Below, in pieces: positions 29,982-54,591 of a stretch of DNA of 64,000 nucleotides. Within the stretch, counting starts at the first letter, position 1. The number at the start of each line of letters is the position of its first letter. A model generated the notes under the pieces. That model was not told the origin of the DNA. It was given only the letters and a program-made list of their open reading frames with translations, and searched no databases. Both the position numbers and the translations under genes were made by a program. This stretch comes from Gammaproteobacteria bacterium (lineage in GTDB: Bacteria > Pseudomonadota > Gammaproteobacteria > Ga0077554 > Ga007554): the NCBI GenBank assembly GCA_021731145.1, contig JAKFXX010000005.1, positions 18,821-82,820 on the forward strand, read 5' to 3'.

Positions 29982-30150
29982 CCCGGATTGTCCATTAGCC
30001 CCAAAATTGTTCACTTAAAGTAGGTTGGGTCAAGCGAAGCGGACCCAACATTGCCTGAAGCAATGATTTTGTTGAGTCCGGAGCTTGCGCTCCTTGACCC
30101 AACCTACACATTGAGCCTGTCGAGGGGCCGTTCATGTACCCAACTTGTCA
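29982..30150. repeat. composite REP/MITE-like element (family A) in the flgH-flgI intergenic region
   Basis: Sequence cccggattgtccattagcccc...taggttgggtcaagcgaagcggacccaacattgc-ctgaagcaatgattttgttgagtccggagcttgcgctccttgacccaacctacaca-ttgagcctgtcgaggggccgttcatg. The same element with a nested insert occurs at ~59867-60092. Coordinates approximate. Confidence 0.5.
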
Positions 30151-35533: not shown

Positions 35534-36427
35534 TTACTTCTTTTTGAGACGATACACCATTCCGCCTTGGCAGCGAACGGTGTCAAAAGCATCCGAATAG
35601 CTCGATACGGATTCGGATGCCCCAAGAAACAGATAACCTTCCGGCGCCAGCACCTGAGCAAAACGCGCGATGATGTCTCGCTTTAAATCGTTTGAAAAAT
35701 AGATCAACACGTTGCGGCAGAAAATCACGTCAAACTTGCCCAGTGCGGAATAATCCTTTTTCATCAGATTTAATTCCGTGAAAGTGACACGTTTGCGTAT
35801 TTCATTTTTGACCTCCCACAGGGATCCTTTTGGGTCAAAAAATCGCCTTCTGCGTTCATCAGACATGCCCCGCGCCAACGTCATGGAATCGTACAGACCC
35901 GCCTTGGCGTCCTTGAGCATGGTGGGTGAGATATCAGTGGCGGATATCTGCACCCCTGCGGGAAAACTGCCCGGTTTACTGTTCAAGTATTCCTGAGCGA
36001 CGATACTGATAGAATAAGGCTCCTGCCCCGATGAGCAAGCCGCCGACCAGATCCGCATCGGACGTGCAGACTTTCCCGCCAGCTCCGGCAAAATGTGTCC
36101 CTTGAGAATTTCGAAAGGCGACTGATCACGAAACCAGAGGGTTTCGTTGGTCGTCATGGCGTCCACAATACGTTCACGCAAACCGGATTTTACGTCACGT
36201 TCAAGACGCTCCACGAGCTCACCAATTGACAGGATGCCTGCCTCCTCCAACAGGCGGTTAAGGCGACTGATCACCAAATAGTGTTTGTTGTCGCCGAGCG
36301 TAATACCGCAGGCAGACTCAAGAAAGCCGCAAAAGGCCGCATACTCTTGATGAGGGATGGTTTGGTTTGGCACGGGACTCCCTGGCATTTTATCGACCAT
36401 TGCGCCTTGGCAATCTGCATACACCAT
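35534..36427 (-). CDS. cheR: CheR-family MCP methyltransferase (flagellar-locus copy, intact)
   Basis: Carries MRIWSAACSSGQEPYSI and a SAM-methyltransferase C-terminal domain. An alternative start at MVDKMPG is possible. Confidence 0.8.
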   Translation of the reverse strand: MVYADCQGAMVDKMPGSPVPNQTIPHQEYAAFCGFLESACGITLGDNKHYLVISRLNRLLEEAGILSIGELVERLERDVKSGLRERIVDAMTTNETLWFRDQSPFEILKGHILPELAGKSARPMRIWSAACSSGQEPYSISIVAQEYLNSKPGSFPAGVQISATDISPTMLKDAKAGLYDSMTLARGMSDERRRRFFDPKGSLWEVKNEIRKRVTFTELNLMKKDYSALGKFDVIFCRNVLIYFSNDLKRDIIARFAQVLAPEGYLFLGASESVSSYSDAFDTVRCQGGMVYRLKKK

Positions 36428-36452: not shown

Positions 36453-37400
36453 TCAAGCAGCCTGTATTTTCCCGGCGCTGTACGACTTTATCCTCTTCAA
36501 GGCCGCCGCCGCAAGGTCATCCGCACTGAATTTTGCGATAAACTCATCCGCGCCAACCTTTTTCACCATGGCGTCGTTGAATACGCCGCTTAATGACGAA
36601 TGCAGCATGACATAGAGGCCGCGTAAACGTTCGTCCTTGCGGATCTCGGTCGTCAACGTATAACCATCCATTTCTGGCATTTCAATGTCGGAAATCACCA
36701 GACTCAGACGCTGCAGGAGAGGATCTTGCGTATCAGCCCATTTTTTCAACAACTCCAGCGCCTCACGGCCATCCGGCGCCAGGGTATATGAAATTTTCAT
36801 CTGATCAAGAGTGCGCTTGATCTGATTTCGCGCCACACTGGAATCATCCACAATCAACACATGGGGTTGCATGCCATGTTGTGCAACACCTTCTTCAACC
36901 AGATCCTCGGAAATCACCGTGGAACAGTGGATGATCTCGGCAAACACCTTCTCCACATCAAGGATCTCGATCAATTGGTCATTGAGCCGCGTCACCGCCG
37001 TCAGATAACTGCTGGAACCCGTGCCTTTTGGCGGCGCCAGCACCGACTCCCAATTCATATTGACGATACGTTCCATGCCATTTACCAGCAATCCCTGAAC
37101 CGATCGGTTATATTCCGTGACAATCACATAGCCACGCGTCGGATCTACCATGGGCGTCTGGCCTATAGCCATGGATAGATCAATCACAGGGATGGTTTTT
37201 CCGCGTATCGTGGCAACACCGCAGACTGAAGGATGGGATTTGGGCAAATGCGCCAGCGGCGGGCATTGAATAACTTCACGGACCTTAAAGACATTGATAC
37301 CAAAGTGCTGCGTGTCATTCAGCCGGAACAACAACAGCTCCAGCCGATTCTGCCCCACCATTTGGGTTCGTTTGTCCACACCATCCAATACGCTTGCCAT
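36453..37400 (-). CDS. cheV: CheV (CheW-like domain + receiver domain)
   Basis: CheW-like N-terminal half, receiver-domain C-terminal half (VLIVDDSSVARNQI...VISDIEMPEMDG). Start set at MASVLDGVDKRTQ; the track ORF begins at a GTG at 37448. Confidence 0.8.
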   Translation of the reverse strand: MASVLDGVDKRTQMVGQNRLELLLFRLNDTQHFGINVFKVREVIQCPPLAHLPKSHPSVCGVATIRGKTIPVIDLSMAIGQTPMVDPTRGYVIVTEYNRSVQGLLVNGMERIVNMNWESVLAPPKGTGSSSYLTAVTRLNDQLIEILDVEKVFAEIIHCSTVISEDLVEEGVAQHGMQPHVLIVDDSSVARNQIKRTLDQMKISYTLAPDGREALELLKKWADTQDPLLQRLSLVISDIEMPEMDGYTLTTEIRKDERLRGLYVMLHSSLSGVFNDAMVKKVGADEFIAKFSADDLAAAALKRIKSYSAGKIQAA

Positions 37401-37476
37401 GCCATTCTCCTTAAGAACGTCATTTATTGATATGCGAAGTATCGGCACGGTACTCCGATACTTAAGCAGTACCTGA

Positions 37477-37683
37477 GAAACAGACGCTGCTTTTCATAAG
37501 TTCTTGTTCTTTCATACACTGAAAACCGAGCTGGTTCACCATCGTCGCTACCAGACCCGGGCCGAGGCCAAGCAGGAAATATTTGAATACATCGAGGTGT
37601 TTTATAACCGCCAGAGACTGCACTCGACTATCGATTATCAAACCCCATCGGGCCATGAAGAACAAAACCGAAATGCCGCGTGA
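37477..37683 (+). mobile_element. IS3-family transposase C-terminal remnant (~60 codons, no start)
   Basis: Plus frame reads ...[60 protein letters not shown], matching the conserved OrfB C-terminus of IS3-family elements. Confidence 0.5.
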
Positions 37684-37965
37684 AATTTTGTCCGGAAAAG
37701 GCTTGCCAGATCACATTTTTATGAAGGGCGAGATGCTGGGGCATCAGTTGGCGTATCGCCCACAAGGTCGTTCGAGAAAGGCTGGTAGCGCGCCTTATTT
37801 TTTCTTCTCTTTTGTGAAAAAGCCCACTAACTCCGAAGAATTAGTGGGCTTTAATGTGCTGGCGGTACGCCAGCACCAGGCACTATCTGTTTACTGTTCC
37901 GCACCCACTTCCACCCCTCAAGTAAAGGGGGGGGAAAGACAAGTACTTGGTTTACTGAAAACCGC

Positions 37966-39636
37966 TTACCAGGAGAAGCCAACACCTACGCCATACACCG
38001 TGGTGCGGCCGCCGTTGTTGGTGGCAACGGAAACTTTGACCACAGCATTCGTAGCCATCCGGTAGGAAGCGCCAAGTGCCAGCGCGGCCCGGCTCTGGAA
38101 GTTGCCGAGGCCGAGGCCTACCCCGAAAGTCTTGTTCTGGTCAACCTGCGGAATGTTGGCCATGGCGGAAACTCCGGCTACACCAGCAGCAACTTGCTGC
38201 ATCTGACGATAGTTGACCGCGTCGAAAGGCTGCGTACCGTCGGCTACGCCATGCACTTGAACTGGCGCACCCGTGGCGGAATTGCTGAAAGAGGCCCCAT
38301 TATCGTCAAGCGTCAGGCTGGTGGAATTGGCGCCGCCAGACAGGGTCGCCTGGGATTCCGTTACGACCAGACCATGGGTATTTCCGATTCCGTTGGTTAC
38401 CGTCAGGGATGCAGTGGTTTGCGCAACGTTGCCGGTGGTAATCTTGCCATTAGCATCCACCACGGCGCCTCTTGAACCCGTGTTGGCAATCGATGTCTGG
38501 CCACTGGTGACTTGAGTCGCGCCGCCGAGTACCGAGGTGCCAGATGTTACAGTGGTCGACGCCGAGCCATTACCGACGAACATGGTGCTATTACCGCCAA
38601 CTGCCCTCACCGTCGTGCCAGCGTTGGTGCTGCCCAACACGTTGGTGCTGGCGAATGCTGCGTTATTGCCGATGTTGTTGGTGCTGATGGCGCCGCCATT
38701 GCCGATATTATTCGTCGTTACATACGCATTGACGCCAATATTGTTGGTAGCGCTATTCAGGCTGGTGGTATTTGTCAAGTTACCCATCGTCACCGCGCCG
38801 GTGCTGCTGCCGGTGTTGATGTTGGTTGCCGCATTGATGCTGGCATTGATGCTCGTCGTGCCGGCGATATTGTTGGTGCCGCCGAGCATCCCGATGCTCG
38901 TCGTCGCGGCAGCACCTGTGGCGATATTGGTTGCCGCGCCGCCCAGCGCATTGATATTGGTGGTACCCAAAACGGTATTGGTCGCACCGGTGATGGCTGT
39001 GGTACCTGTCGTATTACCAATGTTAGTGTTGCCCGTTCCTGCGGCAGAGATATTGGTTGTGCCTGCGCCGGCGTTGTTGATATCAACCGTACCACCCGCG
39101 CCGCTCAGGGTCGTGGTTGCGGTGCCGGTGGTGTTGACGTTGGTCGCGCCCAAAACCGTGTTGGTCGCACCGGTGATGGCAACGGCGCCAGTGGTGTTAC
39201 CAATGTTGGTGTTGCCCGTTCCTGCGGCAGAGATATTGGTTGTGCCTGCGCCGGCGTTGTTGATATCAACCGTGCCGCCCGCGCCGCTCAGGGTCGTGGT
39301 TGCAGTGCCGGTGTTGTTGATTTTGGTCGCGCCGATCACATCCACGGTACCTGTACCCACCGTCACCTCTACGTCACCAGCACCGGCGTTAATTGTGGTC
39401 GCGGCCTCCACTTTCACTGCGTCAGTGCCGATCGTCAGTTCCACAGCACCGGCACCGACGTCGTTGGTAATGCCTGCTGCAGCTGCATCTGCGGTCAAAT
39501 TTATGTCGGCCTTACCAGCGGTGGCGGTATGGGTAGCCGCATTAATATCAGAAGCAGCCATGACCTTCCCACCACCCAATGATGCCACTATAGCCAGTGC
39601 CAGCGCGCTCTTACGAAACTGAAATTTACTTTGCAT
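37966..39636 (-). CDS. trimeric autotransporter adhesin (YadA-like) with signal peptide, Gly/Thr/Asn-rich repetitive passenger and YadA-type membrane anchor
   Basis: 556 aa. The C-terminus AGVAGVSAMANIPQV...NKTFGVGLGLGNFQSRAALALGASYR...VKVSVATNNGGRTTVYGVGVGFSW matches the YadA anchor domain. Confidence 0.75.
   Translation of the reverse strand: MQSKFQFRKSALALAIVASLGGGKVMAASDINAATHTATAGKADINLTADAAAAGITNDVGAGAVELTIGTDAVKVEAATTINAGAGDVEVTVGTGTVDVIGATKINNTGTATTTLSGAGGTVDINNAGAGTTNISAAGTGNTNIGNTTGAVAITGATNTVLGATNVNTTGTATTTLSGAGGTVDINNAGAGTTNISAAGTGNTNIGNTTGTTAITGATNTVLGTTNINALGGAATNIATGAAATTSIGMLGGTNNIAGTTSINASINAATNINTGSSTGAVTMGNLTNTTSLNSATNNIGVNAYVTTNNIGNGGAISTNNIGNNAAFASTNVLGSTNAGTTVRAVGGNSTMFVGNGSASTTVTSGTSVLGGATQVTSGQTSIANTGSRGAVVDANGKITTGNVAQTTASLTVTNGIGNTHGLVVTESQATLSGGANSTSLTLDDNGASFSNSATGAPVQVHGVADGTQPFDAVNYRQMQQVAAGVAGVSAMANIPQVDQNKTFGVGLGLGNFQSRAALALGASYRMATNAVVKVSVATNNGGRTTVYGVGVGFSW
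38956..39315 (-). repeat. two near-identical 180-nt (60-aa) tandem repeats within the adhesin passenger domain
   Basis: Residues 108-167 and 168-227 (NNTGTATTTLSGAGGTVDINNAGAGTTNISAAGTGNTNIGNTTG.AITGATNTVLG.TN.) are nearly identical at nucleotide level. Confidence 0.7.
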
Positions 39637-39783
39637 TTTTTATTTCTCCTGAAAAGTCAACCCTTACACTCAGACTGAAACTGTATCATACACGGAATGG
39701 ATACCCACTTCCCACTACGGCATCAAAGTGCCAAAGTAGTGGTTGTTTAACGGGCCACTCAACATAAGGAAGGCGCATCCGAA

Positions 39784-39888
39784 ATGAAGATTACGACACT
39801 GGGTATCGATTTGGCAAAGACTATTTTTGACCGCCCAGGCAAATGCGGTTCGAGCAAGGTCCAATGTTTGTCAGAGATGTCGTGTCGA
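39784..39888 (+). mobile_element. IS110-family transposase N-terminal remnant (34 codons, then stop)
   Basis: AGGAAGG RBS then MKITTLGIDLAKTIFDRPGKCGSSKVQCLSEMSCR*. The GIDLAK..F motif is the hallmark N-terminus of IS110/IS1111 transposases. Followed by short inverted repeats. Confidence 0.35.
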
Positions 39889-40052
39889 TGAAGGGTGTCT
39901 AGCATTCGGTTATGGACTCTTGAACGAAAACCGCATTTTGACACATCTTGTGACGACAGTATCTAGTAGATGTCTGTGACAACCGGATAAGCATAATTTC
40001 TTTGATTGTGCTTTTACATTTCTATTGGCTCACATTTTGCTTACTCAAGGAC

Positions 40053-40766
40053 ATGCCATACCGTACATATTTTTGGATAGCTATACTTTTCGCAGCATTC
40101 ACATCACTGCCACAGCAAGCTCGTTCCGAAACGTATCAATCACACGATTCGCTGCGCGAAACCGCCAGAACTTTTGTGCAGCAACAAATTCAAAGCACGT
40201 CTGCAACGCCATATATAGAGGTTGGCATCCTGGACACCCGACTACGCCTTCCGGTTTGCGCAGACAAACCGGAGGCTTTCCTGCCACCCGGCAGCCGTAT
40301 CCTGGGATCATCCAGCGTTGGGATCCGTTGTCATAGCCCTAAACCCTGGTCATTGTATGTGCCGGTCACTGTCAAGATTTTTGCGCCGGTCTTGGTCGCC
40401 AGCCACGCACTGAACCGCGGCAGCCAGATAACCGCCCAGGATTTCCAGACCGCCGAACTGAACATCGCCGCCCTTTCTGGCGGTTACCTGAGCATCCCCG
40501 AACAAATCCTCGGCATGACACTGAAGCGCTCAATAGACGCCGGTGCCGTATACACTCCCGCCATGCTTGAGGCTCCGAACATGGTCCGCCGGGGACAACA
40601 AGTCACCCTTCTCGCGGAAATCGCAGGAATCGAGGTGCGCATGGCCGGCAAGGCGCTCATGGACGGCAGCGCCGGGGCCTTAATCCAGGTCCGCAATCTC
40701 GCATCACAACGGGTTATTGAGGGAACGGTAATTGCTGAGGGGATAGTAAAAGTGACGGGGAATTGA
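40053..40766 (+). CDS. flgA: flagellar P-ring chaperone FlgA
   Basis: FlgA family with SAF-like C-terminal region, divergent from the cheV-flg operon. Start set at MPYRTYFWIAILFAAF (signal peptide). The track ORF begins at 40002. Confidence 0.7.
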   Translation: MPYRTYFWIAILFAAFTSLPQQARSETYQSHDSLRETARTFVQQQIQSTSATPYIEVGILDTRLRLPVCADKPEAFLPPGSRILGSSSVGIRCHSPKPWSLYVPVTVKIFAPVLVASHALNRGSQITAQDFQTAELNIAALSGGYLSIPEQILGMTLKRSIDAGAVYTPAMLEAPNMVRRGQQVTLLAEIAGIEVRMAGKALMDGSAGALIQVRNLASQRVIEGTVIAEGIVKVTGN

Positions 40767-40798
40767 CCACTTTAATTGCTGTGCATGTGCTTTTAATT

Positions 40799-40825
40799 TA
40801 AAGTAATGCCTGAATCTGCCGCTAT
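40799..40825 (+). promoter_or_regulatory. sigma28 promoter of flgM-flgN
   Basis: TAAA-gtaatgcctgaatct(15)-GCCGCTAT, located 31 nt upstream of the flgM ATG. Confidence 0.45.
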
Positions 40826-40856
40826 CCTATGCACAGCATCTGAAGAGGTATAGAAC

Positions 40857-41177
40857 ATGCCCATTGAAATCACCGGAAAACCACCCGTAAATGCAACTCC
40901 ACCCGCCGTTGCCGAAGCGTCTACTGTCCGCCAGCCCAACGCGGCACAGCGGGAGACCGGCAAATCTTCCACGGTGGATACCATCAGCTTCACGGACACC
41001 GCCGCACGGCTGCGTGGCCTGGAAAAAACCCTGTCTGCTTTGCCCGTGGTCGATATTCACCGCGTCGAAGGCGTCAAGCAAGCCATCGCCAGCGGCACAT
41101 TTGAAATTGACCCAATGCGCGTGGCCGATAAACTCTTGAGCTTCGAAAGCTCACTACACCTCCGGCGCGCCGCGTAA
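40857..41177 (+). CDS. flgM: anti-sigma28 factor FlgM
   Basis: 106 aa. The C-terminal helices [28 protein letters not shown] are typical of FlgM. Confidence 0.75.
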
Positions 41178-41192
41178 ATCAAGGATATGTAA

Positions 41193-41684
41193 ATGGCCGA
41201 GGCGGAACATCAACAGTTAATAAGTGCGTTGTTCAAGCATGAAATCAACGCCGCCTCGGCTCTGCTTGATACCTTGCGGCAAGAACATGCCGCCCTTGCC
41301 GGCAACGATATACCTGCCATCGAGCAGGCGGTTGTCGGCAAACAACCCTTGGCCTCCCGGCTGGACATACTGATCAAACAGCATGAAGAGATACTGCGCG
41401 CAGCAGGCTATTCCACCAACCCGGCAGGCATCGAAAGCTATATTCGTGACCATGACACGCATGGCGTCCACCGTCTTAGCCTCACCTGGGGGAAGCTTCG
41501 CGCGCTGAGTGCCGAGTGCCAGCACCAGAATCAGGTCAACGGTGCAGTCATCGCCATCAACCGCCTCAATGTCCAGCGGGCGCTCTCCATCTTGCGCGGC
41601 CATCCTCCTGAAAGCGAGGCTTGTTATAACGCCACCGGCGCTACGCAACCCAAATCCCGCGCACAATCACTGGGACGGGCATAA
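41193..41684 (+). CDS. flgN: FlgK/FlgL export chaperone FlgN
   Basis: 163 aa, helical, immediately after flgM. Confidence 0.65.
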   Translation: MAEAEHQQLISALFKHEINAASALLDTLRQEHAALAGNDIPAIEQAVVGKQPLASRLDILIKQHEEILRAAGYSTNPAGIESYIRDHDTHGVHRLSLTWGKLRALSAECQHQNQVNGAVIAINRLNVQRALSILRGHPPESEACYNATGATQPKSRAQSLGRA

Positions 41685-42619: not shown

Positions 42620-42696
42620 GCCCCGGTAGCTCAGCTGGATAGAGCATCCCCCTCCTAAGGGGAAGGTCACACGTTCAAATCGTGTTCGGGGCACCA
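42620..42696 (+). tRNA. tRNA-Arg (anticodon CCU); its 3' half is the integration site of the downstream element
   Basis: 77 nt with cloverleaf and encoded CCA. Anticodon loop ctCCTaa. The 3' 45 nt (plus 4 nt beyond) are repeated at 49879-49927. Confidence 0.85.
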
Positions 42697-42700
42697 ATAA
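42652..42700 (+). repeat. attL: 49-nt direct repeat (tRNA-Arg 3' end)
   Basis: ctcctaaggggaaggtcacacgttcaaatcgtgttcggggcaccaataa, compared with the 49879-49927 copy: 45/49 identical, with mismatches compensatory in the T-stem. Confidence 0.8.
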
Positions 42701-42753
42701 AATCAATAAGTTAATAACTTGTGCCCGGTGCGAATTTTTTCATTTTCGTAAAA

Positions 42754-42783
42754 TGTAACCAGTTTGTAACCGCATTTGTTCAC
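42754..42783 (+). promoter_or_regulatory. putative integrase arm-type sites (TGTAACC x2 + TGTTCAC) next to attL
   Basis: Sequence aaaTGTAACCagtTTGTAACCgcatTTGTTCACtgg. A matching TTGTAACC x2 lies just upstream of int at ~49719-49736. Confidence 0.35.
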
Positions 42784-42825
42784 TGGCGCGGCCTCTCGCA
42801 TTTCGAGTGTGCGCGGAACGCCGGA

Positions 42826-43104
42826 TCAATGCTGCTCATCGCCATGCCGCCTGATGACGAATTTGAACTCGCTGGGGGTATCATCTTCCCCGACGATGGT
42901 TTGGATCGGGGTCGGCTTGCCGTCCAACCGGTCGGCAATCTCCCTGATCGCGGCCAGGTCGCCCTCTCCGGCCCGCATGACCAAGGCACGGGCGATGCGC
43001 TCCAGAGCGCCCTTGTCACGCGCCAAGACCTTATGCAGGGCGTCGCGGAACATTGAGCCTTTCTTCGCGTTGCTATTGCCCTTTTGCCCGCCTTTCCTAA
43101 CCAT
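42826..43104 (-). CDS. hypothetical phage-associated protein (92 aa)
   Basis: Basic N-terminus (GGQKGNSNAKKG) then ALHKVLARDKGALERIARALVMRAGEGDLAAIREIADRLDGKP. Resembles small conserved phage proteins of unknown function. Confidence 0.35.
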   Translation of the reverse strand: MVRKGGQKGNSNAKKGSMFRDALHKVLARDKGALERIARALVMRAGEGDLAAIREIADRLDGKPTPIQTIVGEDDTPSEFKFVIRRHGDEQH

Positions 43105-43149
43105 TCGATTCGAATCCCATCACCTTGTTCCGGTTGATGATTATAGCAC

Positions 43150-43632
43150 TCAAGCGCCGGGCAGTTCCGCCGCCGCCCGCCCGGTGAAGTAGTCCCGCGC
43201 ATCCGCATCTTGCTGGCACTGGCCCAACACGTCGTCGATGATCTCTTGATCGGCCTCACCGATATGTGCCAGCCATGCCCGGATTGCTTGATCTTCGTCG
43301 GCGGTCATGGCGTCGGTCGGTTGCCGCCGGATCGGCTCGAAGGGTTCAGCCGCTACCGCGTCCGGGTGCCAGGCCAGAATGTCGGCATGGGTCGCCTCGG
43401 GGCAGCAGGTCAGTTCCACAGGGTCGCGCTCTGGGTAATGAATCAGCCAGCAGCGGGAAGCGGTCGCCGTATCGCCAGCGCCGACATTCACCACGTCATT
43501 GATTATTTGTGACGTAACAGCCGTAACAGGCGTACAAGCCTGTACTGGTGCAGGTTCCGGTGTTACGTCATCCAATGTGGCAGGCGTAACAGCCCGGCCT
43601 TTCAACCTCACCAGCAGCGCATCAAGCCCCAT
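43150..43632 (-). CDS. hypothetical protein (161 aa) downstream of the primase; the track ORF 43150-44031 is trimmed
   Basis: Start set at MGLDALLVRLKG. The upstream 133 codons of the track ORF overlap the primase gene in another frame and are R/S/C-rich. Contains the V-T-P repeats that come from the iteron cluster. Confidence 0.4.
   Translation of the reverse strand: MGLDALLVRLKGRAVTPATLDDVTPEPAPVQACTPVTAVTSQIINDVVNVGAGDTATASRCWLIHYPERDPVELTCCPEATHADILAWHPDAVAAEPFEPIRRQPTDAMTADEDQAIRAWLAHIGEADQEIIDDVLGQCQQDADARDYFTGRAAAELPGA
43511..43591. repeat. iteron cluster 1: about five TGTTACG/CGTAACA heptamers at the 3' end of the primase gene
   Basis: Sequence gacgtaaca gccgtaaca ggcgtacaa ... gtgttacgtc ... 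ggcgtaaca. Confidence 0.45.
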
Positions 43633-46165
43633 GGTCGCCACCCAGCTTGTCAGCAATGATCTGGTACAACCGCACCAGGCGCCCACCAATGCGTTGCGCT
43701 TTGGCACGTTCGCCGCTGGTTGCTGGTAGCGCGCCGACTTCCTGCAAGATATCCAGCGCCCGCTTGAAGTCGAAGCCCTTGACGGCCTCGCGCAGCCCTT
43801 CGGCGTTGAACAGATAGACGCGCGCGAGGCCGTCATCACGCCACCAGCCTGCCCGATTGATACGCATGGCGTCCGCTGTCTCGTAGGCATCGGCACTGGA
43901 GAATCGGCTATCCCCATGAAGCGAAATAAACCCGGCAACCTGCTCCAATATCTGCCGCCGCTCATCGTTACCGCGTCCGCGTGTGGATCGCCACGCCTTA
44001 AAGCCCACCACTGCCGCTTCGATTGCCGCACCCTCCGGCCAGCCGGTTATGCCGTATTCAGTCGCCACCTCACCCGCCAGCGCCACCAAGGCGAAACGTG
44101 CCGCCCCTCGTTTGTCCTGCCCCTCGCCACCTTCGGCGGATAACTCCGGCAATGACTTGATCAGCTCCAGACGTTCGGCAAAGTTGCGTTTATCGCGGGT
44201 CAGCTTTTCGAGGAATGCCCGCCCAGCGTGTCCGTGGTTCGTTGCCGCTGCTTTCTTGATCGCATCGGAAAACGCCGCACCATCCTTGAAACCGTGCAAG
44301 TTATCCAGTACGCCAAAGCCCCGCACCGCCGGAATATCCAGCAGCCGCACCGACTGCCCAGCCTTAGCCCGGTGTCCTGCTTCTGCCATCGTGGTTGCTA
44401 TTGTGCGCTCGCCATTCGACAAGACAGCACAGCGCCAGCGGGTCACTGCCCGCGCATTGCCGGTGCGGCTTGCCCTCTGTTTGCCAGTGCCATTGCCCAG
44501 TGCGTAGACGATAGTACCTATTTCCTTGGGTTCGGCTTCGCTGGTGTCATCCAAGGCCAGCAGGCAATCACTGAACAGTGCCGCCACGCCCTCCATGCCG
44601 TTTGCTGTTGCTCGCCAGCTTCGGCGGAAATTCGGCCCGCCCCAGGTTGAACAGCCTGCGTCGGCTATCGTACTCTTGCCGATAGACGACTCACCGACAA
44701 AGTGAAGTCCGCCGCTCTCGGCGTTGCATAGCTTGAGCATTGGCCCCGCGAATGATACCGACATACCCAGTACCATCATGGGATTGCCAACAGCCCGTGC
44801 CGCTATATTAGCCTGCCACCCGGCCAACGTGCCGCCCTTGGTGTGTTCGTCATGTCCGCGCTCGCCACTCTGGAAGATCACGTCCGAAGCCTTCGGCCCG
44901 ATTACCGCATCCGGCAGCACAAACGAATCACCGCACCATCCCACTTGCAGCGCACAACGAATACGCCGTTTCGGTGGTATGGCTTGCAGGTAATGCCCCA
45001 GCAATGTCCGCCCGGCGTGTGGGTCAATCTCTACACCCATCGCCAGCAGCTCGCCGCGCAGTTCATCGCCCGCACCGCGCAAAAGTTCCATCGGCATAGC
45101 CCATTCGCGCCACTTGCCGACGGTGGTTTTAAATCGCAGCAGCCGCCCAAAATTATTATCCTGTCCGTCAAAAGTCACAGCCTCAACATGCACGGGTGAG
45201 CATACCCATTGTTGAGTAAGCGCGGGTGGTTCTTCACCTTTGCCGTGCTTGACCGTGAAAGACCATACCCCCGGTTTCAACTCGGCACCACCGGGCAGCT
45301 TCTGCCAATCGTCAAACACTTTGAAGCATGGCCGTTTGCTTTCGTCGGGGATAATTGGCTCAGGTGTTACGCCTGTTACGCCATCCGTTTCATCAGACGT
45401 AACAACAGAAAGCCCGCCGTTATTGGGCTGTACGTCTGTTACGCCTGTTACGTCATTTTTTATCAATGCCGCATCGTGTACCGGTGTTGCCGTGTCCACC
45501 ACGTCCGGGCTTGCGGCGTTTTCTTCGTCGGCTTGATGCTCTGACCTTGCCGATGTTTGCGCGGCCTGTAGAGCTTCTACGGTCGGCAGTGCGGCTATAT
45601 CCGCCATCGTTGCGCCGGGGTTCGCCTTCAACCAGTCCACAGCGTCGCCCTTGGAAGGAAGGTTCAAGGCATCCACGTCGATGATGCGCACCGTGCAGCC
45701 CATTGCCAACAGGATGGAAGCCACCGCATCGGCATAACGCCGCCCGGCGCCATCATTGTCCGGCCAGATCGTCACGGTTCGCCCGGCCATGATTGACCAG
45801 TCGGCTTTTTCTGCCGAATCCGCCGCGCCGCTGGTGGTGGCCAGCGCTCCGGCCTTCGGCAGCGCATCGGCGCACCATTCGCCTTCTACTACGATCACCG
45901 TATCATCGGGCCGGGTTGCCAGATCATGCAGGCGGTACAGCGGCTTGCCGTCTGGGTATTCCGGTTCGCCCAGTGTGTAACCTGCACCATTCAGCTTCAT
46001 GGGACGAATCCATTTTTCACCAGTGGTGGGATGTTTCAGGCGGATGCGCCAGTGCAGCGTGGTGCCGTCGCGGTCGGTGTATTCGTGCAGGGCTTGTGGC
46101 TTGCAACCTTTACTGATCGCTCCATCCGCCAGACGCCGCGCGGCTTGTTGGGGTGTCTCACTCAT
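43622..46165 (-). CDS. primase-helicase (Toprim domain + P4-family/D5-type C-terminal NTPase), alpha-like replication protein
   Basis: Toprim motifs IVVEGEWCADAL and IWPDNDGAGRRYA. C-terminal Walker A GESSIGKSTIA. Start set at MSETPQQAARRL, an ATGA overlap with the upstream zinc-finger ORF. Track ORF extends to 46267. Confidence 0.8.
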   Translation of the reverse strand: MSETPQQAARRLADGAISKGCKPQALHEYTDRDGTTLHWRIRLKHPTTGEKWIRPMKLNGAGYTLGEPEYPDGKPLYRLHDLATRPDDTVIVVEGEWCADALPKAGALATTSGAADSAEKADWSIMAGRTVTIWPDNDGAGRRYADAVASILLAMGCTVRIIDVDALNLPSKGDAVDWLKANPGATMADIAALPTVEALQAAQTSARSEHQADEENAASPDVVDTATPVHDAALIKNDVTGVTDVQPNNGGLSVVTSDETDGVTGVTPEPIIPDESKRPCFKVFDDWQKLPGGAELKPGVWSFTVKHGKGEEPPALTQQWVCSPVHVEAVTFDGQDNNFGRLLRFKTTVGKWREWAMPMELLRGAGDELRGELLAMGVEIDPHAGRTLLGHYLQAIPPKRRIRCALQVGWCGDSFVLPDAVIGPKASDVIFQSGERGHDEHTKGGTLAGWQANIAARAVGNPMMVLGMSVSFAGPMLKLCNAESGGLHFVGESSIGKSTIADAGCSTWGGPNFRRSWRATANGMEGVAALFSDCLLALDDTSEAEPKEIGTIVYALGNGTGKQRASRTGNARAVTRWRCAVLSNGERTIATTMAEAGHRAKAGQSVRLLDIPAVRGFGVLDNLHGFKDGAAFSDAIKKAAATNHGHAGRAFLEKLTRDKRNFAERLELIKSLPELSAEGGEGQDKRGAARFALVALAGEVATEYGITGWPEGAAIEAAVVGFKAWRSTRGRGNDERRQILEQVAGFISLHGDSRFSSADAYETADAMRINRAGWWRDDGLARVYLFNAEGLREAVKGFDFKRALDILQEVGALPATSGERAKAQRIGGRLVRLYQIIADKLGGDHGA
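45363..45455. repeat. iteron cluster 2: about six TGTTACG(C/T)C heptamers inside the primase coding region
   Basis: Sequence ggtgttacgc ctgttacgc ... gacgtaaca ... ctgtacgtc tgttacgc ctgttacgtc. Translated as ...GVTPVTP...DVTT...TSVTPVTS... in the primase. Confidence 0.5.
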
Positions 46166-46479
46166 GGTGTGACCTCCCACGCTCCCAACGCCTTGGCGGC
46201 GCCGATGAAACGCAGCCCATGACGCAGCATGTGAAATGCCAGCACATCGCCCCCATGCGCACCGCATACCATGCAGCGAAAACCGCCGGTGTCCAGTCGA
46301 ACGCGCAGGCTGGGTTGGGTGTCGTTATGAAAGGGACAAAGAGCATTTCTCCATTCGCCGCCGCCGATCAGCTTCAAGCCCTGTTCGTGGTAATACTCGG
46401 CGGGGATGGGCAGAAGGTTGCGCTTGAATCCAAAGGGTTTGCGGGTGTGTTGTCCCCGCGTGGGGTTCGCGTAGCTCAT
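46162..46479 (-). CDS. CHC2-type zinc-finger domain of DNA primase, encoded as a separate ORF
   Basis: CPFHNDTQPSLRVRLDTGGFRCMVCGAHGGDVLAF is a zf-CHC2 motif. Its stop overlaps the start of the Toprim-helicase ORF as ATGA. Confidence 0.6.
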   Translation of the reverse strand: MSYANPTRGQHTRKPFGFKRNLLPIPAEYYHEQGLKLIGGGEWRNALCPFHNDTQPSLRVRLDTGGFRCMVCGAHGGDVLAFHMLRHGLRFIGAAKALGAWEVTP

Positions 46480-46491
46480 GGTGGCGCCCCC

Positions 46492-46707
46492 TTATTGAGA
46501 TTGAGACAGCAGCGCACGGATTTCAGCAACAGGCCAAGCCAGACGGCCATTTATGCGAATGGGGCGGATGGGGCCATTCTCAAGGCACGCATATGCACGC
46601 ATTGTTTGTGGTTTGCGTAGCAGATGGAAAGCGGCGCACGCAGTTTCCACGTGGCTGCGCGTTTCCATTTCAATCGGTGGGAAAGTGTGAACGGTTGCGG
46701 TTAGCAT
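46492..46707 (-). CDS. alpA: AlpA-family phage transcriptional regulator / excisionase-like protein
   Basis: Start set at MLTATVHTF. C-terminal region PIRPIRINGRLAWPVAEIRALL resembles the AlpA HTH (..GRAVAWRESEV..W.). Confidence 0.55.
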   Translation of the reverse strand: MLTATVHTFPPIEMETRSHVETACAAFHLLRKPQTMRAYACLENGPIRPIRINGRLAWPVAEIRALLSQSQ

Positions 46708-46827
46708 TTTGTAATCCTCGTTTATGTTGATGAGGATTACTACTTTAACCATGCGTTAAAAGTTTTAAAGAGACTGATTAGGCTTGGCTGAAACCCGCGC
46801 CGCTATTGGGCTATAGGGTGGTTTTGT

Positions 46828-46862
46828 GTTAAAACTTTCGCTGAAAGTATGAAAGTTTTAAC
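46828..46862. promoter_or_regulatory. 12-bp perfect inverted repeat (GTTAAAACTTTC-N11-GAAAGTTTTAAC) over the stop codon of ORF 46858-47445, with a third half-site ~70 nt away
   Basis: Arms gttaaaactttc / gaaagttttaac. A further aaaagttttaaag lies at ~46750 in the alpA promoter region. Not followed by a T-tract, so more likely an operator than a terminator. Confidence 0.35.
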
Positions 46863-47445
46863 TCAGAACTACGTTGGCAAACGCTTTCAATATCGTTTCA
46901 CTACCAAAGTTTTTTCTATTGCCACGCTTTTTAACGCCAGCATTACTTAGCGACTGGACAACTTTATCAGCCAATATATTCCGCTTCGTAAGCAAGGTTG
47001 TATCGTCCCTGATAAGTTGACGCGCAAAGTGACGGGCCGGGGTGTACCAAGGTTGTTCTGGCGCGGGGTCGTTGGGGTCTACGATTTCCCATGGTTTCGG
47101 TGCTACGGCCTGTATCACTGGCACGGCTTCAACCTTCCCGGTAGTGGATTTGGTGACGGTTGAAAGAGTGTTGCCTGGGTGGACATCAGTGCCCGCCGTG
47201 ACTCCATGCAATTCGCATAATTCTCGTGAAATGAAATAGCCATTTTTGATAGCCCATTCAATCGCAGTACCCGCCGGGAACCATAGACCCAATTCATCCT
47301 GTATCACCAGCTCAAGGGTTCTCCCATCTGAGACTTCATTACCTGAGCCACTGATAACTGTTAGCAGTGTCGTTGGCCTCCATATTGTCTCTTGGCCAAG
47401 CCACAGTGAAGCGGATTTTAGAGCTGTAATCATATTCACATCCAT
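46858..47445 (-). CDS. hypothetical protein (195 aa), no recognisable domain; sits between the TA pair and alpA in the satellite hotspot position
   Basis: MDVNMITALKSASLWLGQETIWRP...GYFISRELCELHGVTAGTDVHPGNT...PEQPWYTPARHFARQLIRDDTTLLTKRNILADKVV... No signal peptide. Confidence 0.5.
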   Translation of the reverse strand: MDVNMITALKSASLWLGQETIWRPTTLLTVISGSGNEVSDGRTLELVIQDELGLWFPAGTAIEWAIKNGYFISRELCELHGVTAGTDVHPGNTLSTVTKSTTGKVEAVPVIQAVAPKPWEIVDPNDPAPEQPWYTPARHFARQLIRDDTTLLTKRNILADKVVQSLSNAGVKKRGNRKNFGSETILKAFANVVLS

Positions 47446-47501
47446 TTAAAATAGAGACCCCATTACGCCAGTGAGGGCGTCCGGCGTTTCCCCCGCCCAA
47501 G

Positions 47502-47954
47502 TCAGGCGGCCATCCGCCACCCCTTGGCGGTTTCCTGGAATATTTGCTTGGCCCCTTCTTCCAGTTTTTCCAGGCGGTCTATGTCGTTCCATTGGGCAAT
47601 CATTTTCGCCACCTTGGTTTCGCCGTCCGCATGTTCCAGGTAAAGCAGGCGCAGCATCCTTTCGGCGGCCACTGTTGGGCGGCGTTTGCTTCGTTCCCAT
47701 AGGGAAATGGTTTGCTCGTCAACGCCCAGGCAGTCGGCCAGTCGTTTTTGCGACATGCCCATTTCTACCCGAAGAAAGCGGATTTCCGCGCCAGACAATC
47801 GCTCGCGGTAATTTACCAAATGGTGCGCGATGGAACGATGCAGCCCGTTTATGTCGTCTATCTCCAGGCACTTGCCATGCCCTTCGATTTCCTCATATTG
47901 GTAGCCATTTTTCAGCCAGATATTCCGCAGCCCACAGTCGTCATATTTCAGCAT
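47502..47954 (-). CDS. MqsA/HigA-2-like antitoxin (degenerate N-terminal zinc-finger region + XRE-family HTH)
   Basis: HTH region GMSQKRLADCLGVDEQTISLWERSKRRPTVAAERMLRLL. Only two of the usual four Cys are present in the N-terminal domain. Follows the toxin after a 4-nt gap. Confidence 0.6.
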   Translation of the reverse strand: MLKYDDCGLRNIWLKNGYQYEEIEGHGKCLEIDDINGLHRSIAHHLVNYRERLSGAEIRFLRVEMGMSQKRLADCLGVDEQTISLWERSKRRPTVAAERMLRLLYLEHADGETKVAKMIAQWNDIDRLEKLEEGAKQIFQETAKGWRMAA

Positions 47955-47958
47955 TTCT

Positions 47959-48282
47959 TCATTCCTCGAATACCGTTGCGATGATTACCCATTCGCCATT
48001 TTCATGCAGCTTGAATACCGCTCCCACAGTAACGCGCAGCCCCGCATGTTGCCAACGGATGTTACAGCGCCAATCCGCTTTAATATCCTGGTGAAGCGGC
48101 TCGCTGATGGTTCCATGCTCCAAGGTTTCCAACACCTGTCTACGCCCAATTTTACGTTGGCGCATTCGCAGTTCGGCATGTGCGGAAAAGAGCAGGCGCC
48201 GTTTTCCCTGGGCAGCCTCCTTGAGCCATTGTTTAGCCAGTTTTTCGCTTGGCTTGTAGGGCTTAATGTTTTTCATTAACAT
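47959..48282 (-). CDS. DUF4258-like small toxin (107 aa)
   Basis: SAHAELRMRQRKIGRRQVLETLEHG...WRCNIRWQHAGLRVTVGAVFKLHENGEWVIIATVFEE matches the DUF4258 toxin pattern. It is upstream of the HTH antitoxin, the toxin-first order seen in mqsRA. Confidence 0.5.
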   Translation of the reverse strand: MLMKNIKPYKPSEKLAKQWLKEAAQGKRRLLFSAHAELRMRQRKIGRRQVLETLEHGTISEPLHQDIKADWRCNIRWQHAGLRVTVGAVFKLHENGEWVIIATVFEE

Positions 48283-48318
48283 ACATTGTATGGGTATATC
48301 GGGAAGATTTCAAGGGTA

Positions 48319-49704
48319 TTATTTTGTCACCACCCGCAACCCTGCTTGCACTGGCACAAACCCGATTCCGGCCTGCTCCAATATCCACGCTTCAATCTTG
48401 ACGTGCCACAGGTGCAGCAAGTCGAGTTCACGCTGTATGTAGTGCTTTTCTGCAATGGCGCTTGGCTTGTGCCCCATGATTTGCGCAACGATTCCAGTGG
48501 GGACTTCCACCCACTCAGACAAGGTGCCAAAGGAACGGCGCAAACCATGCAGGGACAGCGCGGGAAGTGCAGCAGCATTCAATGCCTTGACGTGTTGAAT
48601 GCGCGGTTCCTCTATCCTTCCCGATGCGGCGGTGGGGCTTGAGAATACATATTCATTGCGGCGCGGCAGTGCGGATATTAAATGCTCCAGGTAGGGTGTC
48701 AGCGGAATGGTGCGCTCGCCTTCCACTTTGTCGCGGATGGTTAAACTTTTCCACTGAAAGCCAACATCGCACCAACACAGCGTGGCCAGTTCGTTGCGGC
48801 GTGCGCCTGTCAATAACAGGCCTTGCAGATAGGCAGCAATTACCGGGTTCCCAATCTTTCGCACCGCTTCAAACCATGGCTTGATTTGCGCACGTCTCAG
48901 GCTGTCATTTTTCTTGATTTGTGGTGAAGGAACCTTCTTTCTCACGTCATCAGACTGGCACGCATCAGCGTGAACGGCGGCGCGGTAGCTGTCTTGCTTG
49001 GCGCACCATGTAAGGAAGGCACGCAAAAAGCGGAAGGCTTTGGCGGCAGAGGTCGGGGCTTGTTTGATTTCCTTGGCTAACCATGCCGCAATGGCCTTTG
49101 CGTCCAAGTCAATTAGGCGCATTGTCATCAGTGGCACCAACATGCCGGGGCGTGTTTTTTTAGATTCGCCGGGGCGGCTTCCACGTTTGCGCTTTACCCC
49201 ACCGGCTTGAACAAAATAAGCGTGGTGCGCTTTATGTCTTTCGCCCCATTCAGGCTTACCGTCAACGATAGAGGCGCTACGCTCTGCAATATAGGCTTGC
49301 CATGCTTCGGCCACGGTCACGGATTCGCGCGCCTCCTGCACCACCAGCGCGGCGGCTTGCGCCTCCTTGGCTAACTTCGCAGCTTTCTTGCTGGCTTCAT
49401 TCTCTGCTACCACTTGGCGCGGGTCATTGCCTTGGTCTATCAAGACTTGAAGGCGGCGGGCTTCGGTTTGGGCGGCATCAATACTCCATGCCTTCACCTT
49501 GCCAATCGTAACGCGCATTGTTTGCCCGTTTACCTTGGCTTGGAAAATGTAACGCTTGCGGGCCAGTGGGTCGCTATCTTTCGCGCCACCTGTCGCACGC
49601 ACCCCCAGCCCCGGCACTTCGGCACACCATAGGAAGGCTTGGGATTTACCTTCATCGCACTTAAAGCCTGCAATCCGTCCGGCTGTTAGTTTGACCTTTG
49701 CCAT
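48319..49704 (-). CDS. int: P4-type tyrosine integrase
   Basis: 461 aa. N-terminal DUF4102-like arm-binding region. Catalytic region ends HGLRRSFGT...GHKPSAIAEKHYIQ (R...HxxR...Y). Adjacent to attR. Confidence 0.85.
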   Translation of the reverse strand: MAKVKLTAGRIAGFKCDEGKSQAFLWCAEVPGLGVRATGGAKDSDPLARKRYIFQAKVNGQTMRVTIGKVKAWSIDAAQTEARRLQVLIDQGNDPRQVVAENEASKKAAKLAKEAQAAALVVQEARESVTVAEAWQAYIAERSASIVDGKPEWGERHKAHHAYFVQAGGVKRKRGSRPGESKKTRPGMLVPLMTMRLIDLDAKAIAAWLAKEIKQAPTSAAKAFRFLRAFLTWCAKQDSYRAAVHADACQSDDVRKKVPSPQIKKNDSLRRAQIKPWFEAVRKIGNPVIAAYLQGLLLTGARRNELATLCWCDVGFQWKSLTIRDKVEGERTIPLTPYLEHLISALPRRNEYVFSSPTAASGRIEEPRIQHVKALNAAALPALSLHGLRRSFGTLSEWVEVPTGIVAQIMGHKPSAIAEKHYIQRELDLLHLWHVKIEAWILEQAGIGFVPVQAGLRVVTK

Positions 49705-49878
49705 GATGCGCCCTTTTTTGTAACCAATTTGTAACCACGTTTTCAGTATATCGCGGCATACCTATCAACACAACAAACAAGGGTATTTTTAATAACTAAT
49801 TGTTTTAATTGGAAACATGATTTTTGCGGAATGGCAATCAACGGTAAAGTATGCTTATTTTTTAAGCATTTTCACGCA

Positions 49879-49927
49879 CTCCTAAGGGGAAGGTCGTACG
49901 TTCAAATCGTATCCGGGGCACCAATAA
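49879..49927 (+). repeat. attR: 49-nt direct repeat of the tRNA-Arg 3' end; overlaps the last 8 codons and stop of the hydrogenase protease gene
   Basis: ctcctaaggggaaggtcgtacgttcaaatcgtatccggggcaccaataa. Positions 49902-49927 encode ...IIGAPDTI* on the minus strand. Confidence 0.8.
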
Positions 49928-50387
49928 TCGGCAAAAGTTCTTCTTTGATCCGCTCCACCAACATGGGCAACGCCCCGGCAGTTTCGGGCGTTAAAGTGTC
50001 GCATGGCTCAAGGTTGCACGCCTCCACGCCGTAGAGCACCAGTCTCGCTGGCAGCATCCCCAGCGTTCCACCCAGCGCCAGGCTTTCGGCCACACCAAAA
50101 CCATGGCTGGAGAGCAACGCCGCCTCCATCTCGATCTCTTCATCCTGCAAGCGGCGGATTGTGCCGGGCACGGCGCCGCTGCGCATGGCATCAATGAGAA
50201 TGACGTGGGCGGCGCCCTCCATGAGCATGAGCAATCCGCTGGCCGGCCGGTCACAGGTTTGCACACTCACCAGACCTTGCGGAAAACGCCCCAGCAACCC
50301 CGATCCGCGGATAGCCTCGACCGCCTCCCAACCAAGCTGATCGTCACCGAAGGGCGAACCGATGCCGATGATGCGGATCGGCGTCAT
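49902..50387 (-). CDS. NiFe-hydrogenase maturation endopeptidase (HoxW/HycI/HybD family)
   Basis: 161 aa. IRIIGIGSPFGDDQLGWEA...VILIDAM is the hydrogenase protease signature. ATGA-type overlap with the large-subunit gene. Confidence 0.8.
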   Translation of the reverse strand: MTPIRIIGIGSPFGDDQLGWEAVEAIRGSGLLGRFPQGLVSVQTCDRPASGLLMLMEGAAHVILIDAMRSGAVPGTIRRLQDEEIEMEAALLSSHGFGVAESLALGGTLGMLPARLVLYGVEACNLEPCDTLTPETAGALPMLVERIKEELLPIIGAPDTI

Positions 50388-51682
50388 GGGCGGCTTACGG
50401 CAAGCTTTAGAAAATGCGTAGCGCAGGAAATGCAGGGGTCGTAGTTTCTGATCACCGTCTCGGCGCGGCGGCGCAGCTCTTCATCGCTGCTGGCAAGCCC
50501 GAAAGCATCCAGTGACCGGCGCAGATCCTCTTCGATGCGCGCCTGATTCTGGCTGGTGGGCGGCACGATGCGTGCGCTTGTGATCAGACCCTGCTCGTCG
50601 GTTTCATAGCGGTGCCAGAGTATGCCGCGCGGCGCCTCGGTGCAACCATACCCAACACCCGCGCGCGGCACTACGGGAACATAAGGTGCAAATGGATATT
50701 CATAGCCTTCCAGCAATCGCACTGCCTCGCTCAGGGCATAGTAAACCTCGATGGCGCGCGCCACAATGCTGTGGAACATGTTGCTACTGGGGAAGGCAAT
50801 GCCCGTCGCCTGTACAGCGCGCGTCACCTGTTCCGGAAGTTTGTCCAGATTGAGATTGAGGCGTGCCAGCGGCCCCACCAGATAAGGCTGGTCATGCAAC
50901 AAGCTGTGCAACGCAGTGGAATGCGGCACCTGGAATTCGCGGAAGTGATGCTGGTATTCGGCAACCGGAATATCCAGACCAGCGCTTGAGACGATGCGGC
51001 CTTCGTTCATGGGGTATTCATCGGTGTGGCGCAGGGCGACGCTGGTAAAGGTCTGGTCGTCCCGAGGCAGGTTCAGCGAGGCCGTCCAGGCGACTAGCGC
51101 CTCGGCATCGGGCAAGGCGCAGCGTAGTTTTTCCAGTAGCGCACTCACGTCTTGCTGATCCGGCGCACGGTAAAATCCGCCGACGCGCACGCCCACTGGA
51201 TGCACCGAGCGCCCGCCGAACAGCCGGATAATGGCGTTGCCCAACCCTTGCAGGCGCAGGCCACGGCGCACCTCATCAGGATAATCGCGCGCCATGGCGA
51301 TGGCGTTGTCATAGCCCAGAAAATCCGGCGCGGCCAACAGGTGAATATGCAGGCTGTGGCTTTCCATCCACTCGCCACAATACAACACCCGGCGCATGGC
51401 GCGTACCCAAGAACCGGGCTGCGCACCGAAAATGCCCTCCAGGGCATGCACCGCGCTCATCTGGTAGGCCACCGGGCAGATGCCGCAAATGCGCGCCACC
51501 ATGTCCGGCACTTCATTGTAATCGCGCCCTTCCAGAAACTTCTCGAACAGACGCGGCGGTTCGTAGATACGCAGCTTCAGGTCGGCGATGTGACCGTCGC
51601 GGATGGCGATGTCGAGCGCGCCCTCGCCTTCTACACGCGCCAGCACCGGCACATGGATGTTGATTTCACGGTTTTCCGCCAT
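50384..51682 (-). CDS. NiFe hydrogenase large (alpha) subunit, cytoplasmic group 3 type
   Basis: N-terminal RICGICPVAY and C-terminal DPCISCATH nickel-binding motifs. Start set at MAENREINIHVPVLARVEGEG. The track ORF begins at 51733. Confidence 0.85.
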   Translation of the reverse strand: MAENREINIHVPVLARVEGEGALDIAIRDGHIADLKLRIYEPPRLFEKFLEGRDYNEVPDMVARICGICPVAYQMSAVHALEGIFGAQPGSWVRAMRRVLYCGEWMESHSLHIHLLAAPDFLGYDNAIAMARDYPDEVRRGLRLQGLGNAIIRLFGGRSVHPVGVRVGGFYRAPDQQDVSALLEKLRCALPDAEALVAWTASLNLPRDDQTFTSVALRHTDEYPMNEGRIVSSAGLDIPVAEYQHHFREFQVPHSTALHSLLHDQPYLVGPLARLNLNLDKLPEQVTRAVQATGIAFPSSNMFHSIVARAIEVYYALSEAVRLLEGYEYPFAPYVPVVPRAGVGYGCTEAPRGILWHRYETDEQGLITSARIVPPTSQNQARIEEDLRRSLDAFGLASSDEELRRRAETVIRNYDPCISCATHFLKLAVSRP

Positions 51683-52460: not shown

Positions 52461-52461
52461 C

Positions 52462-54521: not shown

Positions 54522-54591
54522 ACCTCCTCAGTTACCCTTCATTTATATAGGCTATCATACAATTATCCTGACACCACCAAGGAGTCCACCC

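Follow-up and report, generated by a model that had tools for sequence, protein, structure and literature searches.

An insertion-sequence-scarred islet with an intact type Vc adhesin gene between flgA and cheV of a gammaproteobacterium

How did an adhesin gene come to lie between flgA and cheV, and were the insertion sequence (IS) remnants around it the agents of its arrival? The question is raised by a stretch of 64,000 nucleotides (nt), here called the window, from contig JAKFXX010000005.1 (positions 18,821 to 82,820, forward strand; assembly GCA_021731145.1, Gammaproteobacteria bacterium). An earlier reading made from the letters of the window (the sequence-only reading) had proposed that an adhesin cassette was inserted into the flagellar regulon by IS elements. 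Our joint reading, to which we assign a probability of roughly 0.85, is that the space between flgA and cheV holds a lineage-specific 2.5-kb islet, scarred by IS elements, with one intact type Vc adhesin gene.

The arrangement of the two flanking genes was compared in 80 related loci obtained by a CheV scan of GTDB species genomes. flgA was found in 74 of them, each time directly upstream of cheV with an estimated gap of -34 to about 300 nt, and an adhesin homologue was present in none of the 80 (flanking DNA up to 10 kb per side). The closest locus, L001, belongs to a groundwater gammaproteobacterial metagenome-assembled genome whose CheV is 92% identical; there the order flgA-flgM-flgN-pilZ is divergent from cheV, and the flgA-cheV spacer is 145 nt long. 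Positions 7233-9917 of L001 corresponded to window 42700-40018 and positions 9955-11183 to window 37465-36207 (blastn). Alignment with L001 placed the junctions at 37465/37466 and 39980/39981, with the L001 spacer joining both flanks to the nucleotide, and by blastn and alignment a segment of 2,515 nt (37466-39980) was missing from L001. The same alignment showed a 2-nt TT/AA common to both junctions, while a repeat search found no terminal inverted repeats of the whole insert. Because flgA adjoins cheV in the relatives and no adhesin homologue lies beside them, the segment 37466-39980 is, judged by sequence comparison, a derived, lineage-specific insertion between the divergent genes. The claim of the sequence-only reading that flgA and cheV are divergent neighbours in relatives, with the adhesin segment extra here, was borne out: none of the relatives had the adhesin here, and the similarities to IS3 and IS110 held up in database tests. 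No account of an adhesin between these two genes turned up in a literature search.

The gene in the segment is an intact open reading frame (ORF) at 37966-39636 on the minus strand, which encodes a protein of 556 amino acids (aa) of the trimeric-autotransporter type, in agreement with the YadA-like adhesin that had been proposed. Its sole Pfam domain was YadA_anchor (PF03895), at aa 496-556 (37969-38151; E = 3.9e-16). When the single sequence was searched against PDB sequences with phmmer no match was obtained, and a family profile was required; a profile from 51 family members matched 2lme, the YadA anchor (E = 2.9e-7), as well as Hia translocator domains. By structure, the anchor was also recognised against PDB entries 2lme, 2gr7/2gr8/3emo and 9vnj. 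In an AlphaFold2 (AF2) monomer model, a helix at aa 476-493 (predicted local distance difference test, pLDDT, about 83-89) stands directly before four anchor strands. The N-terminus, aa 1-27 (39556-39636), resembles a Sec-type signal peptide by inspection only (MQSKFQFRK-SALALAIVASLGGG-KVMA/AS; as a whole, MQSKFQFRKSALALAIVASLGGGKVMA before AS), and the starts of homologous proteins line up with its first residue. The passenger (aa ~30-470) is rich in Thr, Gly, Asn and Ala and is predicted to be rich in beta strands.

By analogy with YadA, Hia and AtaA, the signal peptide of the adhesin would direct it to Sec for export, three C-terminal anchors, each of a helix and four strands, would assemble into one 12-stranded outer-membrane barrel, and the Thr/Gly/Asn-rich passenger would pass through the barrel to form a surface fibre that sticks to surfaces or other cells. 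This mechanism is inferred from membership in the anchor family. The protein is like these type Vc adhesins in its PF03895 helix and four-strand anchor, its Sec-like N-terminus and its repetitive passenger. Unlike that of YadA, the passenger matches no recognised family of head, neck or coiled-coil stalk, and its Thr/Gly/Asn/Ala-rich sequence is predicted to be all beta; it may, with a small probability, represent a type of trimeric-autotransporter head not yet described structurally. The gene thus adds to the known adhesins an environmental one of trimeric-autotransporter type whose passenger has no catalogued domain.

The protein database held 290 homologues, nearly all of them unnamed environmental proteins. 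The few named sources were Gallionella, Rhodocyclus, Aquabacterium and Desulfobacterales, and some homologues were annotated as 'beta strand repeat-containing protein'. Homology with the closest adhesin locus (L085) runs 66 nt beyond the stop codon, to 37899. The contexts of the closest homologues, L083-L086, held no flagellar genes and no common flanks beyond these 66 nt. At L083 2117-7041 the homologue P0002 (60% identity over 62% of the query) stands beside a truncated integrase gene and a gene with a DUF772 transposase domain. From such contexts, members of the adhesin family appear to recur in surroundings rich in mobile elements.

Three IS relics accompany the adhesin gene. On the cheV side, 37466-37713 (plus strand) holds the last ~68 codons of an IS3-family orfB with an intact right inverted repeat, as determined from profiles, blastn and alignment. 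The orfB part is clear from 37477 and stops at 37683; the sequence-only reading had called it an OrfB C-terminal relic, and this call proved significant, since the peptide matched rve_2 (E = 2e-16) and positions 320-366 of the 369 positions of the NCBIfam IS3 model NF033516 (E = 3.7e-16). The DNA is 77% identical to an IS3 element on a Methylomonas sp. LL1 plasmid. The right inverted repeat was defined in the Methylomonas element and then aligned to the window at about 37685-37713, where it has the terminal ...AGATCA. The right terminus is therefore intact and directed at the adhesin, while the element is cut inside orfB exactly at the junction with ancestral DNA; about 248 nt of IS3 remain, and the ancestral cheV-side sequence starts at 37465.

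On the flgA side, 39677-39830 (plus strand) holds the complete left end (about 107 nt) of an IS110-family element and its first 15-16 transposase codons (blastn and mapping of element boundaries). Window 39674-39829 was 69% identical over 156 nt (E = 6e-4; blastn, 7.3 Gb) to IS110 copies on Paraburkholderia sabiae plasmids, and the match was in register, covering ~108 nt of left end and 46 nt from the start of the annotated transposase gene. The relic peptide from 39784 begins MKITTLGIDLAKTIF, as against MKITTIGIDLAKSVF in P. sabiae, with 12 of 15 residues identical to WP_201663008. Two element copies in different contexts placed the left terminus at 39677, and the homology stopped at about 39830. 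The 35-aa peptide gave no Pfam match; 15-16 codons remain of the transposase, and no DEDD domain was found. Nor was IS110 similarity detected in any of the three frames downstream of the relic. The P. sabiae relative has a left end of ~105 nt and a right end of ~300 nt. Because its long non-coding end thus lies 3' of the transposase gene, a remnant of bridge-RNA type appears unlikely in the short left end here; Rfam identified no RNA family in 37300-40100. The sequence-only reading had extended the IS110 relic over 39784-39888. An IS110-type start does lie at 39784, but the relic ends at about 39830, and 39831-39888 is the antisense of a different relic.

This third remnant belongs to the IS5 family and had been missed, being read as part of the IS110 relic. 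It occupies 39831-39965 on the minus strand and consists of the intact left inverted repeat (TA followed by GATACTGTCGTCACAAGATG), the 5' untranslated region and the first 25 codons, as established by blastn to metagenome copies; its ATG is at 39905, its minus strand 39831-39905 encodes MLDTLHRHDISDKHWTLLEPHLPGR, and it is joined head-on to the IS110 relic. On its own, the peptide fell short of significance in both Pfam and NCBIfam (E = 0.15 and 0.043), a word-based search of the protein database yielded no candidates for it, and blastn of 39826-39990 against plasmids gave no match. The identity was resolved by scanning metagenome contigs with a degenerate DNA motif. This gave 47 matches, most of which were the start of transposase-like ORFs with an almost identical N-terminal sequence. 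Copies compared across contexts are elements of ~836-838 base pairs (bp) with 21-nt terminal inverted repeats and a duplicated TA on both sides. Window 39828-39966 was 87% identical over 139 nt (E = 2e-43) to the copies in contigs L115, L119 and L120, and the transposase of the L120 copy, its two frames joined by hand, matched the NCBIfam IS5 model NF033580 (E = 2e-87). With the ~836-bp element in these contigs the window shares the left inverted repeat, the 5' untranslated region and the first 25 codons; unlike the full element, it retains 135 of ~836 nt, the remainder being replaced by the antisense IS110 stump. Alignments left about 15 nt (39966-39980) between the IS5 terminus and the ancestral flgA-side sequence. 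These matched nothing in the rest of the window or in the related loci retrieved. As a candidate, a fragment of the IS5 right end was rejected by eye (7/14 matches).

The islet therefore reads, in order: cheV promoter, truncated IS3, terminator, adhesin gene, 40 nt of non-IS sequence, truncated IS110, truncated IS5, ~15 nt and flgA. IS3 and IS110 each present an intact terminus to the adhesin gene, IS3 downstream of the gene and IS110 40 nt upstream of its ATG, and both elements are truncated on their far sides. Since these inward termini are intact, both elements must once have inserted beside the adhesin gene. The outer junctions are not IS termini: the left one lies inside IS3 orfB, and the right one ~15 nt beyond the IS5 terminus. 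Outer breakpoints that are not products of a transposase require deletions or illegitimate recombination. The structure is not a composite transposon, because the IS elements are of three different families, all are truncated and the outer junctions are not IS termini; as the sequence stands, neither simple nor composite transposition explains it. We propose that IS elements inserted around the adhesin gene and later lost parts through deletions or rearrangements, and that the fragment would have reached its present site, or been trimmed to it, by illegitimate recombination with 2-nt microhomology; it would not have been placed there by a transposase acting on the ends now present. Two routes are possible: either the fragment was already scarred and came in as one block, or an originally larger, IS-mediated insertion was cut back where it stood, within bounds set by the flagellar promoters. 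Of the earlier proposal of IS-mediated insertion of a cassette, the lineage-specific insertion of an adhesin with IS remnants stands, but the mediation by IS cannot be read from outer junctions that are not IS termini.

The islet resembles composite transposons and other IS-scarred islets in that a cargo gene lies between IS ends with intact inner termini in an otherwise conserved locus. It differs from composite transposons in that the flanking families are not the same (IS3 versus IS110 and IS5), all three elements are truncated, any duplication is of at most 2 nt, and the islet cannot now move as a unit. A type Vc adhesin in an IS-scarred islet combines known kinds of element, and the case is one of ordinary genome plasticity. 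It illustrates that a conserved flagellar gene junction can absorb foreign DNA provided the adjoining promoters survive, and that such an event may be marked by IS debris, not by intact IS copies. The current understanding of adhesins, IS elements and flagellar regulation is unchanged, and the importance of the finding is modest.

The signals at the edges of the islet bear on its consequences for the flanking genes. A sigma-28 (FliA)-like promoter of cheV, TTAAGTAT-N11-GCCGATAC, lies at 37440-37465 on the minus strand; it matches 13/16 positions of TAAAGTTT-N11-GCCGATAA (a consensus match only), is conserved in L001 and directly adjoins the left junction of the insert. cheV thus probably keeps its own promoter, the function being judged from the motif. 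Two adjacent hairpins followed by a U-run stand 3' of the adhesin stop (37819-37878, minus strand), with a fold of -48.2 kcal/mol (z = -7.1; 0 of 200 shuffles as stable); the repeat search also detected an inverted repeat here. A simple terminator scan made no call at these hairpins; according to the fold they form a probable intrinsic terminator of the adhesin gene. Since the insertion would have spared the sigma-28-like promoter and the adhesin would bring its own terminator, flagellar expression is probably unaffected. The description of the cassette as 'inserted into the flagellar regulon' was right as to position, but no flagellar promoter reads into the adhesin gene, terminator hairpins follow it and cheV keeps its sigma-28-like promoter.

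The strongest competitor to the origin proposed here is that the islet was built up in situ, with one or more complete IS copies inserting first in the flgA-cheV spacer (e.g., IS5 at a TA), the adhesin gene arriving by homologous recombination between IS copies or by cointegration, and deletions then removing as much as selection for motility permitted. The IS5 left inverted repeat is intact, is preceded by TA as in the other copies and lies ~15 nt from ancestral sequence; three IS families are crowded into about 540 nt of islet; and the deletions end exactly at the sigma-28-like promoter of cheV, as would be expected under purifying selection. No counterpart of the 15 nt exists in L001, which speaks against such a history, but intergenic indels are common at about 90% genome identity, so these nucleotides could be ancestral in the lineage. 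The left junction inside orfB and the absence from the rest of the 64-kb window of a full-length copy of any of the three IS also count against it. We regard in-situ build-up as a possible, though not the favoured, history; if it is true, the insertion was IS-mediated and the evidence has since been eroded. Far less room is left for an adhesin gene that was ancestral at the site and deleted in the L001 lineage. A single close relative was compared, but flgA adjoins cheV without an adhesin in all 74 more distant loci with flgA, the L001 spacer joins both flanks of the window to the nucleotide, and the extra segment starts and finishes in IS debris, which together make this explanation very improbable. 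Slighter still is the chance that repeated IS sequences produced a chimera during assembly. IS fragments do lie at both edges, and short-read contigs break in the 183-nt repeat of the adhesin gene at 39244. However, the flanks are exact neighbours in L001, which a chimera would not restore, other copies of these IS are absent from the window, and separate Logan assemblies of two runs share an identical right junction. These are contig L135 (SRR10388253), equal to window 39244-41596, and L136 (SRR10388250), equal to 39244-41320, both at 100% identity; coming from separate runs, they provide independent confirmation of the right junction and of the whole of both stumps, IS110 and IS5. Both end at 39244, inside a 65-nt identical core of the repeat. 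An exact match to the FlgM protein exists in the Logan assemblies of six runs (SRR10388250-59), and the identity of the two contigs shows that the same strain occurs in this sample series. Exact-protein look-ups of the adhesin, CheV (with two alternative starts) and CheR returned nothing on record.

Several points weigh against the reading of the locus as a scarred islet with a type Vc adhesin. Only one close relative, at about 90% nt identity, was compared, and neither the order of events nor arrival en bloc can be reconstructed from the structure. No donor locus for the islet was found. The GC content at third codon positions (GC3) of the adhesin gene is 0.65, within the host range of 0.58-0.71, and composition therefore gives no independent sign of foreign origin; neither GC nor GC3 sets the adhesin gene apart from those of the host, and it may have come from another place in the same genome. 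The best homologues share 76-79% identity with the protein, and only over its C-terminal 37%. No Pfam family of head, neck or stalk matched in the passenger, and the AF2 model has low confidence there (pLDDT about 50-60 at aa 40-330), a beta-meander domain at aa 340-455 being the exception. Finally, a crude scan of 37350-40100 for sigma-70 consensus promoters found 0 where 2.0 were expected, and the adhesin gene may therefore be silent.

This last point supports a further rival, according to which the gene is not transcribed at present and is a dormant, promoterless relic without current function. The sole non-IS sequence upstream of its ATG is 40 nt (39637-39676, minus strand; direct reading), which contains a GGAGAA ribosome-binding site, the scan of the insert yielded no sigma-70-like promoter, and no flagellar promoter runs into the gene. 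On the other side, the 556-codon ORF is intact, with ribosome-binding site, signal peptide and anchor, the promoter scan was crude, and the IS5 relic retains its whole 5' region, directed at the adhesin. We consider silence rather unlikely on this balance. The original promoter of the gene would be gone, and any transcription would have to start inside the IS stumps, where the promoter region of the IS5 transposase, which points at the adhesin, would be the most obvious candidate. The specific proposal that the native promoter was lost to the IS110 insertion and that the adhesin gene is now transcribed from the truncated IS5 transposase 5' region ~270 nt upstream is a speculative one, to which we give a small probability. 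If it were true, an IS stump would serve as the regulatory region of a surface adhesin inside a flagellar cluster, and attachment and motility could be coupled, or uncoupled, in this lineage.

The passenger contains an internal tandem repeat, which the sequence-only reading had described as a perfect repeat of 180 nt. Tandem Repeats Finder (period 183, 2.0 copies) and a second repeat finder instead identified a duplication of 2 x 183 nt (61 codons; aa 108-168 and 169-229) at 38951-39316 on the minus strand, with copies at 38951-39133 and 39134-39316 that are 89-90% identical. The in-frame copies differ at 21 nt, with 13 synonymous and 5 non-synonymous codon changes, and the longest perfect run between them is 65 nt (p~0.001 if the differences were scattered at random). 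This run hints, as far as the sequence goes, at partial gene conversion or a constrained core. The duplication is old, at 89% identity, and lengthens the passenger. The 61-residue unit was present in 0 of the 120 best homologues. The repeat sits in the Thr/Gly/Asn-rich part of the passenger, for which the model gives beta strands or no regular structure at low confidence, and no coiled-coil stalk was predicted there in the structure model.

The repeat had also been put forward as a substrate for variation in stalk length, a claim that was overstated. Because the copies are only 89% identical, they are a much weaker substrate for slippage than was claimed, and with a model that is beta or irregular a location in the stalk is not demonstrable. 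Near-identical tandem DNA repeats, by which, together with copy-number polymorphism, repeat-length-variable (contingency or 'periscope') proteins are recognised, were likewise absent, the gene having two copies at 89%. BadA of Bartonella henselae has many highly similar neck/stalk repeats with documented variation in length between strains (PMC8859334). The present protein is like BadA in that modules of the passenger are duplicated in tandem, which could give recombination something to act on. It differs from BadA in having two copies only, at 89% identity, and no variation in copy number was seen, the short-read contigs ending inside the repeat.

The genes on either side of the islet are ancestral. 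cheV, at 36453-37448 on the minus strand, encodes a CheW domain (Pfam CheW, E = 3.8e-34) and a receiver domain (Response_reg, E = 1.2e-16), and its true start is likely the ATG at 37403, as suggested by the L001 CheV, which begins MASVLD. flgA lies at 40002-40766 on the plus strand (ChapFlgA, E = 5.4e-36; TIGR03170, E = 1.1e-41); its true start is likely the ATG at 40053, the L001 FlgA beginning at the equivalent position. Upstream of this start, at 40027-40042 (plus strand), is a sigma-54-like motif, TGGCTCACATTTTGCT (GG-N10-GC), which is conserved in L001. Its function is doubtful, because it is unusually close to the flgA ATG. In L001, a 139-nt segment (11184-11322) stands in place of 57 nt of cheR (window 36150-36206). 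The ORF downstream of it, which starts MSSALSLLEHFAQVPDPR..., presumably resembles the N-terminus of an ISAs1-type transposase, and cheR may be disrupted in the L001 genome.

Other features of the window lie apart from the islet. An integrated element at 42697-49934 adjoins tRNA-Ala(CGC) and tRNA-Arg(CCT) and has at its boundaries a ~49-nt direct repeat, which corresponds to the 3' end of tRNA-Arg (42652-42700 and 49879-49927). It encodes a tyrosine integrase (48319-49704) and an 881-aa DUF927 protein (43622-46267); L001 does not have the element and has other genes beside the tRNAs. After it, at 49902-59792, are genes for a [NiFe]-hydrogenase and its maturation (HycI-type protease, large subunit and HypF).

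Intergenic repeats resembling repetitive extragenic palindromic sequences or miniature inverted-repeat transposable elements (REP/MITE), with nested GC-rich hairpins that start with GTAG, occur at 24425-24561 and 61344-61480 (inverted, 96%). Further ones were seen at 29982-30113 and 59869-60096, which match each other, and at 8182-8222; a core of the first, 24471-24518, is also present in L001 at 5240-5287. A chemotaxis module of low GC content (0.41-0.47, versus ~0.55-0.60 elsewhere) lies at 1163-6945, at the edge of the flagellar cluster. It encodes a globin-PAS-HAMP-MCP receptor of 971 aa, CheW and CheA, and may have been acquired separately, as a sensory unit.

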